From assembly GCA_965112155.1 (NCBI GenBank), contig OZ218104.1: a DNA stretch of 64,000 bases. The stretch is one strand, 5' to 3'. Under the pieces are notes generated by a model. That model was given only the letters and a program-made list of their open reading frames with translations. It did no database searches and was not told the DNA's origin. This document shows positions 30,421-46,442 of the stretch, piece after piece. The translations under genes and the position numbers were made by a program. The stretch comes from Podarcis liolepis. Its lineage: Eukaryota. Numbering within the stretch: position 1 is the stretch's first letter; each line of letters begins with the position of its first letter.

Positions 30421-35255
<4,835 letters not shown>

Positions 35256-39721: not shown

Positions 39722-42700
39722 TCACAAGAGCCCCAGATTCTTCATCGTCCGCCATCGGTCCTTGATCGCCACAGGAGTGCGGTTCTTAAAGGGGAATGCC
39801 TGGGAAATGGCTTTCCACCTCCCTTCCCCAAACTTCTTCACGCCTTCCTTAATCCACTGAGACTCCTCTGAAGTCCAGATCTAGAAAGAAGAGGGCATAG
39901 GCTCTCATGAGCAACCATCAAGTGCTGCAAAACTTGCCCCTTGTCCCCATGACAGAATGACAGATACCCCACCCTCTGGAGCTGGTTCCATGGCTGTTGC
40001 TAACAGAGGATTGCCACTGACATGGGATGTAGCTCAGTAACTCACAGCAGGCAAATATCCATCCCATATTTCAAGACATTAAACCCAACTTGGTGGAACA
40101 CTTAGTCCTCCTTCTGCAATATGTGGGTAATAAAAATAAAATTCAGCCACCTTACAGTGTGGTTGAAGAGGCCATCAAAGATAGCAGATATAATGTGCTG
40201 AGATTGCCCAGGCTTCTTTGAAACACCTGGGTATCCAAGACCCTTGATTATTTAATTAATTAGGAAAGGCCCCTTAGTCCAGTGGTTGAATATGCAGAAG
40301 ATCCCAGCTTCAAACCTGTGACATCTCCAGGTAGAGCCGCGAAAGAGACACCTGGACTGAAACCCTGTAGCACAGACAATACTGAGCTAGACGGACCAGG
40401 ATTCAGCATATGGCAGCTTTCTATGTTCCCATTAATGGGGATTTCATCAGTTCTTTTTTTTGGGAGAGGGGGTCCTCATCAACTGGCCTCCATTTAGAGG
40501 GGTCTTGTCAAGGCAGGCCTATTTCTCCCCACTGGAGTGCTCAGCTCCAGACTGGGTGTAGGCTTGGTTACCTTCTTTTTCGAACCAAAGAGGGAAGTGT
40601 TGATGCTGCTGCTGCCTTCTTCCTTTGATTCTGAAACACAAATTCATTTACAAACTTTATGGGATGGATGGAACCACTCGGTAAGCTGGTTATTGCTACT
40701 GGCTCAGCAGTTGGGAGGTTTTACCACTACTGCACCTCATCAGAAATCCAGGGTAGTGGTCAAATTCCACCCAGCCCTTGGCATGATGTGTAGAGTCAAC
40801 TACAGTACCGATGGAACTATGTTAGGGTTGCCATAAATCCAGGGCATCCCAGACATGTCCTCTTTTGGGGGGCCAACAGGCCCAATCCAGGGGGATTTTG
40901 ACATTTTAAAGGACATGTCCAGGGTTGTAGGGAGGGGTTATTTATTCATTTATTGCTTGGCCAACTCTACACGCCACTGCTGCCGCCAGCCCAAGCTGGG
41001 AAAAGAAGAATGTGGGTGCACTTCCTTCCCTGGCTCAGGCTGTCCTCTTTTTTGCTCTTCAAGATCTGGCAACCCTAAACTATGTGGCAAACAGTCATCC
41101 ATGTTCACTCACAGTTGCCATCTCATTCTAGCACAGTTCACAAAATGGATCACTTTGTTTTGCAAGATGTTTACCAGGTTTTGAGAGTTTTGCCTTTAGC
41201 TAGTCTGGGTATTGCCTAAGCAAGCCTCCTGAAGGACCGCAGTTAACAGTTCTCTTTGCTTGCCATGCTGGCAGTGTTTTTCCCCATATCATTGTGATGT
41301 CACTGGGTAATGCAATGTGAGAAGCCATCAAAACTGCACAGGTGCTTTAATTAGAAGAGTGCGTGGAGCAACAATTGAGCATCATGCAGAACAAGAAGCC
41401 AGTCTGAGGCAAAAGGCAATAATTTTGCCAGTGCTGCTGCTGTGCACTTGCGAGTAGGCAGTCCAAATATTTTACTTTTCTGATCCAAGAGCTGTGCCCC
41501 CAAATCCCTCTGCATACTGTATACAGGATACTAGCTGCTTACCAAAAAGTTCATCCTCATCACTCCAGACCTCCTTTTCTTCATCCTCATTTAAACAAAT
41601 TAGTCTCCTCTTTGCTAATCTGAATGGAACAGAGAAACACAAGTGAGGAAGGCCTACCCCACAAGGAGATGGGACTGGACTGAGCTGCATCAATTAATGT
41701 CACACAGAACCAGGATTATGGAGATGCTGGGTTAAGTATCAGACAAGGAGCGAGGTTAATTTGTCCCAGCAAACACACCACTGCAGAGACCTATGGCAGC
41801 TTAAATATGAGCAAATAGCTGGTGGCAGAAACACAAACCCTTATCCTTGGTACAGACGGAAGGAGGAAGGGGGGGAGAGAAATAACATTTTCTACCTTCT
41901 GTCTGGCAACTGAAGCTAACATTCTAAGCATCTGACAAAGCAGAGTCCGGCGCAGATGTTTCTGCCACAATAAATTTGTTTAGCAACCTTTAATGGGGCC
42001 AGAGACCATATTGTCAATTCTGCTATCTTTGCAATCTGAGTAATAAAAATTAAGACAAGGTATGTGAACCAGATTCTCTCGCAACCTGCTTCTACTAGCT
42101 GGGGGAGAAGATGCACAGCGATGCAACCCTACCACTGCAAACCACTTTTGCCTTCCTTGGAGCTTCTGGGCTGAGGCCTAAGGCCTTCTAATGGATTCCT
42201 TGCAAAGGTGAAAGTTGCACCAAATGCCTCATGCTATGCCAGTTCCCCAGCAGACCCCACAGCAGTCATAACTTCTTACCTGGGATATTGGGAGGTATCA
42301 TGAGGCTGGGTGGGTATTTGGGGCTGTGCAGGCCGGACAACCAAAGTTGCCACGGGTCTCTTGGATGGAACTTGGCAGGAAGTTGGGGGGTTCCAGATCT
42401 CTGACCCCATAACCAGTGTGCTTATGGACACTGAGCATTCACTGGGGTGCGGCCTGGAGGCAGCACGGTTCTTCTCCGTTTGGCACTTGGCTGCGTGGAA
42501 ATCAGAAGCCAAACATGGCTTGGAGAAAGTCCAGTCCAACTTGTCCAGTTTTGAAAACTCTTCATCTGCATCTGGGGAATTGGACAGGATCTTGAAAGCA
42601 TCCCTCAGAGTAGAAAACCCATACGAGCCCATCCTCTTAGGCGAGCATCTGCAAAATAAAGAAACATCAGAAGGTTGCTCCACAAGGTTTGCCAACTTAT

Positions 42701-45700
42701 GTTGCTGACCTCACCCCCAAGACCTTGTTCCCCTGGCAGCAGGTGCAATTTGAGTCTGAGTGCTGAGAGCCAGAAGTTGTATGGCAAAACATCTGCCCAG
42801 CATGGCAAAGGGAGTCAAAACTGTAAGAGGCCATAGGCTGCTAACCTGTCAGAGTCACTGGAAACTGCTGAGAAAGTGGCAACAGCAACCACAGCAGGCT
42901 CTGCAGCTCCACTGGTTTCTTCTTCTGGCTTTGAAGCTGCCTGGCACTCATCAACCACTTTGGCAAGCTCCAAAACAGCTCCCGTTGCCTCCATCAAAGG
43001 CCTTGCAACTGTCTCACGGCCTCCCTCCAGAGACTTTGGCTGTTCTTCCACTGTATTTCTAGGCCCTGCCTCAGGCCGGGGCTCTTCCAAAGTCTCATCA
43101 GATCTTCCTACAGATTCAGGTTTATCTGCTGCCGCCACCTCTGAGGTTTCTTTCACCATTTCCTCCTTGCTGGCCATTTCCAAAGGATTGAGCCTGGTCT
43201 CTATCTGATCATCCGAATCCCTTTTTGCCATCTTAAACAGAGAATGTGAACACAGTTACTAGAGAACACTTCTCAACTTTATTTTCTTTATTCTAGTTAT
43301 ATACAGCAGCCATGCCCAAGCTGGTGCCCTGAAGATGCTTTACCTACAATTCCCCTAAGCCCCAGTCAGCACAGCCTCATGATGCTGGAGCTGTTGGGAA
43401 TTGCTAGTCCAAAACATTGTCAGGTTACAAGCTTGATATATGTCAAATGTGACACTGGAGCCCCGTGCTGTTCTGCTGTGGGGTACTTTGCTCTTCACAA
43501 AAATATTTCCCAAACGCATAACAGTTTGGCCAGGGAGGCTTCTGTCTTAAGCCTCAGGTGCTGAATGTACTTTTTTGATCACAGTGTTTAGACGGCAAGA
43601 GTTCTGCTGTGGCAATGTGGGTGATATTCAAGTGCTCCAGCAACACACAGAAATATATGAGGAAAGCAAGCTGCCTTATGCCAAGCCAGACCAATGGTTC
43701 ATATAGTTTCCTATCACCACACATTGAGTGACAGCGGCTCTCCAGGGTTTCAAGCAGGGGACATTCCCAGTCCTACCTAGAGATGCCAGGGATTGAACTT
43801 GGGACCTTCTGCATGCAAAGTATATGTTCAACTACTAAGCTATGCTCCCACTACAACATCCCACATCTCAATCAAGCAGCACTCCACACCCTTGCTTACC
43901 TCTAAGAGAAAGGGCTCAGAGTCACTCAAGCAGCTTTCTAAATACAGAAGTATTCTCTGCTGGAAAGCTTTATAGGAGAAGTTCCAGATGGCTGGATGAG
44001 CGAAGTTTTTTTCTCGGATAATGCTCTGGAACATCGACCTCATTTTCTAAGCAAGGGGAAATGTTTTTCAGTACTTGCAAGCAAATTGCAGCACAGGGCA
44101 GAGATAAAAGCAATTTTTGCAGTCATTAGAAGTTTAAACAAAACAAGCCAAGCCACCAGAGCAGTCTAGGTAATGTCAAAAATGAATGAAAGTAATGATG
44201 ACTAGAGATGTGGACCACAATCTGTAGCAACATGGGCTGCTTGTGGATGCAATTTTTCTCATTGCGTAAGGGGGACAATAAACTCTTAAGTATTTAAGAC
44301 ACTCACTGAATTGGAGAATGTGGGAAGGACAAACCATGATTCTGCTTTGCAGTGAAATGACCCTATAAGAGGCACATTTCAACAACAGCAACATGAACTC
44401 ATACCTGCTGAAAGCTCACCTGGGAACTTGGGTCCTTTGACATGTGTTTCCTCAAGATCTTGCTGGCTTGTTCATATTCTTTGTTTTTTAGACAGGTTAT
44501 AACAGCCTGGAGAAGAAAGACAAAATAATGGTTTGCAAGGAAGACTTTGGGGGAATGTTCCTAATCTAAGAAGATACTGTTCGAGAGATATCCCTCTGGA
44601 AGTTTTCTAGATCTGCTTCACATTTTCAACCCAGTGTGTTTTCATTGTGTAATATTAGACCACTTATTAAAGAATTTAAAAAAATTCAAGTAAGGCAAGT
44701 TACATTAAAGTCTGTAGGCTAACAACATTGAAATAATGTATGCCTCAGGAGAGTCAAGAAGCCAGCTTTTCCTGGATTGCCCCCGACGGAAACAAGTTTT
44801 CAAAACATGCTGAGTTCCAATAAACTCAGGCACTCTGAGGAGACATTTCTCTTTCATTTCATCCCAGCATATAGGAATCTTGCCTCCTTGCTTCTATTAA
44901 CTTTTGTGAACTTATTTAAAAGTCCAATTTAAGCATGGAGAAAAATAGGCAAGAGTTCATCCTGGCATTGAATTAGCACCTTAATTAAACCCTTTCCTAA
45001 ATATACTGCATTTTGAAACTTAAGACAGCTGTCCTCATACTAACTAGGCTGAGAAACAGTAATCAGTGCCTACAGAAGAGGAAATGCTAACACTTACTGC
45101 TTCCTTTATTTTTTTTCTTATTTCTTCTATTATATCAATGTCTATGTCCAATTCATTCTTCATCTTATCCAAAAGAACAAGGGCATATTCAAGAGGTGTT
45201 AACTTGGTCTTGGTATCAATGGTCCAATCTTCTTCAATCCTAGACAGAAGCTGGATAATCCGTAGCTGAATGCCAATGTGTTTCTCTAGCACTAGGGGCC
45301 TTGCAAGCACAGCTGGAGAAGAACAAGACAGTCAAAACAGCCACTAAGCAAAATCAGATAGTTCAGCAAACCAGGTGTAACGAGGTTTGGGAAAGGGCAC
45401 CAAAGCCCTGTCCCATATCTTGTATCCCTGGCCATATACAGACAGACAGCTTCATCCCAACATGCCCTTTGGCTCAGGATCAGGAGTCACTTTGCATTTG
45501 CTTGTTTTTTTGTGTGTGATCTACAATATCCTTTAGTATCTATATATACACAAACACACACTTTTTTTTTTAGTGTCTTAATCTTTGTGGTGAGTGATCT
45601 TGCTGGAGCTCCCATTTTGTGGGGCAGAAATGCAGTATGTATGGATTTTATTTATAATAATAATAATAATAATAATAATAATTTTTATTTATAACCCGCC

Positions 45701-46442
45701 CTCCCCAGCCAATGCCGGGCTCACGGCAGCTAACAAGCAATGATAAAAACAAGTTGAATGATTACAACTTAAAAACAAAATTAGAATACAACAACATTAA
45801 AATATTTATAGACACACAGAAGTAATTACTTATTTATTATTAAAATTTATTATTATTTCCCTTAATTTCTAAAGGCAAATGACAAACGTTCCAGGGACAC
45901 AGGCTGTATTATATTTTAAGTTGCTTTAGGTTCATTATTTCTTAAATGAAAACACCTAATGACTATTAAATGTAATATATAAATGTAAATATGTAACAGT
46001 GACATAAGTGGAACCAGGGCTATTACGTGACATATTTTAATGTTTGATGTTTTAGTATGTTCTGATATGTGCTGTGAGCCGCCCAGAGTGGCTTGAGGAA
46101 ACCCAGCCAGATGGGCGGGGTATAACTAATAAAATTATTATTAGTTATTTACACTCACGTTCCTTAGCAGGAAATACCTTTACCCAGCGAGAATGTTCCC
46201 CAAATGCCCCTTTCGTAAAACAAACTGGTCTCCCTACCGTATATGACGTCCCGCAGCTGGCGAAAGTCCTGGCTGCGGCCGGCCCGGAAAGCCTGAAGGG
46301 CCCGGTGGGCGTAGAAGAGGATGGCCCACCGATTCACCGCCTCCTCCAAGGCCTTTTCGCGAGCCTCCGCGGCTCCTTCGGGCGACGCAGCAAGAGACGC
46401 TCCACGGCCACCGCCCGCCATCTTCCCTCTCCCGCGCGCCAT
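39722..46442 (-). CDS. TERF2: Telomeric repeat-binding factor 2; exons 46442-46238, 45312-45098, 44506-44420, 44046-43900, 43231-42846, 42648-42280, 41619-41543, 40630-40572, 39880-39722 (1704 nt, 567 aa)
   Basis: TRFH ([20 protein letters not shown]), RAP1-binding-like [10 protein letters not shown]...FSKLD, TIN2-binding-like [17 protein letters not shown], Myb/telobox IKDRWRTMK; phases continuous; minus-strand AATAAA 39398-39393. Confidence 0.95.

Follow-up and report, generated by a model that had tools for sequence, protein, structure and literature searches.

How did a single exon of a lizard TERF2 gene come to encode a TRFH docking loop without the residues GENL and without the phenylalanine at position 120, and can the loop that is left still hold YxLxP-motif partners? 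We examined this in a stretch of 64,000 nt from Podarcis liolepis (the window). An earlier note, made from the sequence alone, had proposed that one imprecise intron loss remodeled the loop and rewired partner recruitment at telomeres. Taken as a whole, the account that we find reasonably probable is an old shift of a splice donor, followed by a precise loss of the intron in lacertids, with docking of Apollo and PNUTS likely kept through a new tryptophan.

The TERF2 locus and its fused exon

The window carries a TERF2 orthologue of Podarcis type (lacertid) with nine coding exons, as the earlier note had counted (Table 1). They form one frame of 567 amino acids with a single stop at its end, and the eight introns are all GT-AG. 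RNA reads of a related organism, from two studies, gave joints for six of the seven introns within the mapped stretch, and a loose end runs from 45313 into exon 1.

Table 1. Features of TERF2 in the window
Feature	Position	Strand	Length (nt)	Evidence or remark
Coding exon 1	46238..46442	-	205	from first ATG; ends in phase 1; RNA loose end from 45313 matches its 3' end
Fused exon 2+3, TRFH helices and docking loop	45098..45312	-	215	RNA joint 44505/45097; DNA contig spans it
Portion corresponding to ancestral exon 2 minus 12 nt	45229..45312	-	84	TERF1 exon 2 of the same genome is 96 nt
Portion corresponding to ancestral exon 3, with Trp at the C118 position and Ile at the F120 position	45098..45228	-	131
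Lost-intron site GAAGAAG/ATTGG, putative shifted donor	45228..45229	-		read-through models P0017/P0018/P0121 and P0238/P0280; exon-skip model P0111
TRFH exon	44420..44506	-	87	RNA joints of related organism and gene model
TRFH-end exon	43900..44046	-	147	RNA joints of related organism and gene model
Hinge exon	42846..43231	-	386	RNA joints of related organism and gene model
Hinge exon with RAP1-binding motif	42280..42648	-	369	RNA joints of related organism and gene model
Exon with iDDR-type acidic motif including Trp	41543..41619	-	77	RNA joints of related organism and gene model
Exon	40572..40630	-	59	RNA joints of related organism and gene model
Last coding exon, Myb domain with KDRWR, stop included	39722..39880	-	159	RNA joints of related organism and gene model

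The 215-nt exon is flanked by AG and GTAAGT, reads ...[20 protein letters not shown]..., and divides into 84 and 131 nt at 45229/45228. Among the 15 of 58 RNA joints listed, none falls inside it. A DNA contig from another related organism covers 44515-45333 with one 1-base gap; since this contig crosses the exon unbroken, the absence of the intron is not an assembly error, and an assembly artefact is excluded. Against human TRF2 (PDB) the gap is exactly GENL, with Ile opposite F120 and Trp opposite C118. Thus, the single exon, the 12 missing nucleotides, their place at the join, and the Ile at position 120 were all as the earlier note had described them. The corresponding human exons 2 and 3 are presumably 96 and 131 nt, for which two proxies are at hand: TERF1 exon 2 of the same genome is 96 nt and ends in GKSL-G directly before gt, and 10 gene models, four of them from named birds (manakins), break after GENL-G. 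These two observations place the ancestral donor after GENL-G.

The gene is TERF2 by several lines of evidence. A phmmer search returned human TRF2 PDB chains (E 4e-8); a Pfam scan of the 215-nt exon alone missed the TRF domain. With a model of the P. muralis protein, Foldseek returned TRF2 at ranks 1-15 (E 6e-16) and TRF1 only from rank 16 on. The named relatives of the exon are lacertid TERF2 sequences, 92-97% identical over it, and in a tree the window gene is sister to P. lilfordi TERF2 (support 100/98). The hinge carries both the RAP1-binding motif and the acidic iDDR motif with its Trp, and the first hinge exon is far longer than the matching stretch of mammalian proteins. TMED6 exons lie downstream at 30424-32139, and frames at 23.7-26.5 kb are presumably from COG8. 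In the neighborhood (19300-62700) we take the genes to be PDF and COG8, on the minus strand with TMED6, and, on the plus strand, DHODH, head-to-head with TERF2, and DHX38; these names, except TMED6, come from our recognition of the translations. Domain order and the neighbors TMED6 and COG8 are shared with vertebrate TRF2. The C-terminal Myb domain has the K-D-R-W-R motif in the form given in PMC8653790. A paralog mistaken for the orthologue is excluded by gene content, neighbors, and the tree, and a pseudogene by the intact frame, the GT-AG introns, and the RNA joints.

A probable donor shift and a later intron loss

The deletion is much older than Podarcis. In alignment A3, whose 58 rows were picked by hand without duplicate isoforms, partial models, and read-through or odd models, the four residues are absent from all 30 squamate rows (geckos, skinks, a cordylid, a tegu, an amphisbaenian, lacertids, anguimorphs, iguanians, and snakes) and from none of the 28 outgroup rows, which are mostly unnamed and include, where named, mammals, a turtle, birds, a caecilian, and a lungfish. 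The outgroup comparison proposed in the earlier note thus turned out as it had expected, with GENL and Phe both kept. The Phe at position 120 in 28/28 outgroup rows overstates its constancy, for in the wider protein set several fish-like proteins have Tyr there or lack the residue. In a census of 292 proteins, 199 were matched: 57 with the short form (counted as proteins rather than assigned to species one by one), 112 with the ancestral spliced form, 10 with an ancestral read-through or insert, and 20 others. No protein named as tuatara or crocodilian was among the relatives retrieved, and the date of the deletion therefore has only turtle and birds as its older bound and geckos as its younger one.

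Similar gaps were seen outside squamates. In Mobula (P0155, P0270, P0271), 12 residues are missing from TRF2, the F120 region among them. For Amblyraja, the supplement of PMC8653790 treats this gap as a possible annotation error; the Mobula proteins suggest a real loss in rays and skates. A fish-like TRF2 far from squamates, P0182, has the same four-residue gap (INE-DTSF), which is likely an independent use of the upstream donor. Hence this donor would be open to use in more than one lineage.

Several squamate gene models suggest that the intron outlived the deletion. A phase-1 donor G/GTGAR, if read through, translates as G-E, and GENL starts in the same way. Three UniRef models of Varanus komodoensis (P0017/P0018/P0121) read EE-GECGEP-TEQTPLE, while the RefSeq Varanus model reads [16 protein letters not shown], that is EE-DW without GENL. 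Two models of Pseudonaja textilis (P0238/P0280) read EE-GERGRSP and never reach exon 3. Such read-through peptides occur in no frame of the window's junction. Since these models leave EE for a foreign G-E sequence, the intron is likely retained there at a shifted donor. In Phrynosoma (P0111), exon 1 is joined straight to DWTID, which is weaker evidence: an AG precedes DWTID anyway, and a cryptic AG within a fused exon could serve. Read from gene-model peptides rather than from DNA, these cases indicate that the intron likely persists, at a donor shifted 12 nt upstream, in Varanus, Pseudonaja, and perhaps Phrynosoma. As the deletion is squamate-wide while Varanus and Pseudonaja apparently keep the intron, the deletion would be older than the loss, and the loss precise. 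At the protein level, the window exon and the spliced Varanus RefSeq model both read EE-DW, as a precise loss predicts. An imprecise loss does not agree with a spliced Varanus form that lacks GENL while read-through models of the same species show the intron, and Pseudonaja has the same break.

A two-step history, a donor shift and then a precise intron loss, is thus very probable from the sequences at hand. In the first step, before geckos split from the other squamates, the Gly codon of EE-G-E would have supplied a G/GT donor 12 nt upstream, and the former G-E-N-L codons would have become the start of the intron. The phase remained 1 after such a shift, so the reading frame survived. In the second step, the entire intron would have been removed without further bases on the lacertid line after it left Toxicofera. 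The gene could have recombined with a cDNA, or the break could have been repaired at the AG common to both ends; both routes fit. This loss is older than a set of TERF2 paralogs elsewhere in the genome (C21, below), because they share the 215-nt exon.

A decayed processed copy of TERF2 bears on the cDNA route. It lies at C3:45,099,216-45,099,424, has frameshifts and the short junction, and is followed by pieces of the next two exons without introns. Its identity is 69% over 203 columns, with a score of 105 against a shuffle maximum of 38; the free-gap alignment past about base 650 of the mRNA was over-fitted and was discarded. The intronless copy with its short junction indicates a past reverse transcription of TERF2 mRNA in the germ line. 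This attests to the availability of cDNA but not to its role in the intron loss. A cDNA-driven loss is expected to remove neighboring or 3' introns. Here only one intron was lost, it lies toward the 5' end, and the eight others are present, which does not fit that pattern.

The earlier note had instead taken the change for one event, a joint deletion of intron 2 and 12 exonic bases, which would then belong to a squamate ancestor. Both changes do coincide at one point in the Podarcis genome, and the C21 paralogs share both. Such an event would mean that no squamate has the intron, yet five models from two toxicoferan species, with the deletion in their own spliced form or in that of their kin, run into non-exon sequence at this very place. 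We consider the single event highly improbable. Of its two proposed routes, AG microhomology or a cryptic G/GT donor, the cryptic G/GT was the right site; the intron and the 12 nt were apparently not lost together.

Both steps of the two-step history have known counterparts. Splice-site shift is a named form of intronization, described in PMC12124190, in which a nearby GT likewise becomes the donor and the intron takes in an in-frame part of the exon; the squamate case differs in that the affected part is a binding loop of known structure and the change seems to be fixed throughout an order. As in other precise intron losses, the spliced message would be unchanged from that of the nearest intron-bearing relatives. 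Unlike a typical one, the lizard case looks imprecise against mammals, because the donor had moved earlier. Imprecise intron losses have been described in plants, according to PMC4443532.

The docking site and its partners

In TRF2 complexes as described in PMC7672075, the motif Tyr lies in the L101/R102 cleft and bonds to S98 and E94, the motif Leu enters a pocket of helices 2 and 3, the Pro stacks on F120, and R109 and D81 make further bonds. Of the 30 squamate rows in A3, 29 keep D81, 27 keep E94, 29 keep L101, 29 keep R102, and all 30 keep R109. S98, which bonds to the motif Tyr, is kept in none, and neither is F120: position 120 is Ile in 23 rows, Thr in four, Val in two, and Met in one. 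At position 118, two residues ahead of the missing Phe, 29 rows have Trp and the remaining one has Phe. Thus, five of the six contacts of the Tyr cleft and backbone are kept, all but S98, and the aromatic residue at 120 is replaced, by Ile in the window gene. Fold and the residues D81, E94, L101, R102, and R109 are shared with the known docking site (PDB 3bua, 4m7c, 5wqd, 7c5d); the lizard differs from it in a loop shorter by four residues, F120 to Ile, C118 to Trp, and the missing S98. In the TERF1 of the same genome (C8:32,917,168-32,918,644), Leu stands at the place of human F142, while TERF1 of Gekko and Elgaria keep Phe.

Structure prediction had been proposed as a check in the earlier note. 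In an AlphaFold2 model of the P. muralis protein the TRFH fold of TRF2 is retained (TM 0.91 to 3bu8), and the 12-residue loop has a pLDDT of 92-93. A complex prediction with two copies of the P. muralis TRFH (27-219) and two copies of a 40-residue Apollo peptide from the Podarcis genome gave 0.70, 0.17, and 0.01 in its runs; with a median below the 0.34 mark, no controls folded, and no alignment used, it speaks neither for nor against binding.

In the Podarcis genome, the last exon of Apollo encodes YDLSP close to the C-terminus. Another exon, which we located with the PNUTS motif and take to belong to PNUTS, encodes YNLKP. NBN was also located, and MCPH1 gave no match in the genome by Pfam, a result uninformative on its absence. 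According to PMC8653790, the YxLxP motif occurs across amniotes only in Apollo and PNUTS, was gained within mammals in NBS1 (NBN), MCPH1, and SLX4, and is mammal-only in SLX4, TINF2, and NBN. The rewired recruitment of the earlier note finds no support here: the SLX4, NBN, and MCPH1 motifs are reported as mammalian gains, and the Apollo and PNUTS motifs are intact in this genome.

These data suggest that the site is remodeled yet working, which is the likelier reading, with Apollo and PNUTS still bound. The pockets for the motif Tyr and Leu would remain, and the shorter loop would bring the new Trp onto the motif Pro, so that Trp is predicted to take over the role of F120. The site is likely under continued selection, as five contacts are kept, Trp or Phe is fixed, and the Apollo and PNUTS motifs are intact. 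We regard continued docking as probable. On the other side, F120A abolishes binding of SLX4 in human (PMC4334113) and of Apollo in mouse (PMC10497418), both F120 and S98 are lost in 30/30 squamate rows, and YxLxP motifs may persist for other reasons. The lizard protein is like the mouse and human F120A mutants in having no aromatic residue at 120. It differs from them in having Ile rather than Ala, a shorter loop, and a new Trp, and so need not act like the mutant.

Squamate TRF2 could instead be a natural F120 mutant without YxLxP docking, with the same two-step history and with Apollo arriving otherwise or leading ends processed otherwise. The complete loss of F120 and S98 and the effect of F120A in mammals favor this, as do the Leu at the matching place in TERF1 and the existence of other lineages without the F120 region (Mobula P0155). 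However, at each of the five other contacts 27-30 of the 30 rows retain the residue, an aromatic residue has become fixed at a new place, and the Apollo and PNUTS motifs are intact, and we consider it unlikely. It is very unlikely that the loop changed for reasons other than docking, through drift under relaxed constraint or for a role in DNA binding or folding, with Trp as a space filler. Position 120 does vary among squamates, and several fish-like proteins vary in the loop too. Against this, Trp or Phe is fixed in 30/30 rows across the squamate tree, which needs selection, though it does not say for what.

TERF2 copies and significance of the squamate loop

Lacertids carry further copies of TERF2. 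At C21:37,723,947-37,749,401 is a tandem array of an intron-bearing paralog, with two whole and two partial copies in units of 10.6 kb that are 99.2-99.7% identical; this near-identity could partly be an assembly effect. In these paralogs, exons one to six have an open frame; a deletion of 34 codons has removed the RAP1-binding motif, and another sequence stands in place of the iDDR Trp motif. Against the window gene, dN/dS is 0.58 in the TRFH domain, 0.42 in the hinge, and 0.25 in the Myb domain. Counterparts were found in P. muralis, P. lilfordi, and Zootoca, and by our tree the Zootoca and Podarcis paralogs may have one origin or separate ones. C21 is 51.7 Mb long, close to the 50.7 Mb of the P. 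lilfordi Z (PMC10214862); Z linkage of C21 is a guess. Vipera latastei has two TERF2-like proteins on one scaffold (P0031, P0033), both with RAP1-binding and iDDR motifs, a possible second squamate duplication.

The variant of this well-known binding site is real, extends across squamates, and is apparently unreported; ordinary changes in splicing would have produced it. Our literature search, which lay mostly outside subscription journals, found no paper describing the loss of GENL. In PMC8653790 an Anolis TRF2 is among the accessions, and its text mentions neither squamates nor snakes, and lizard only for TRF1. The intron loss by itself is of small interest. Its lesson is that what looks like an imprecise intron loss can turn out, when intermediate species are included, to be two ordinary steps.

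F120 is treated as the essential residue of the TRF2 docking site in vertebrates, and squamates are a natural, order-wide variant without it, in which the Apollo motif is kept despite the loss. It is unlikely that all lizards and snakes, having lost the Apollo-docking Phe by one splice-site shift, can no longer recruit YxLxP partners in the mammalian way. If true, an entire order of vertebrates would tolerate what in mouse cells leads to leading-end telomere fusions, and lacertids would further have added TRF2 copies without RAP1-binding and iDDR motifs. Either way, squamates would offer a second structural solution, with Trp for Phe in a shorter loop, or a clade without TRFH docking at telomere ends.
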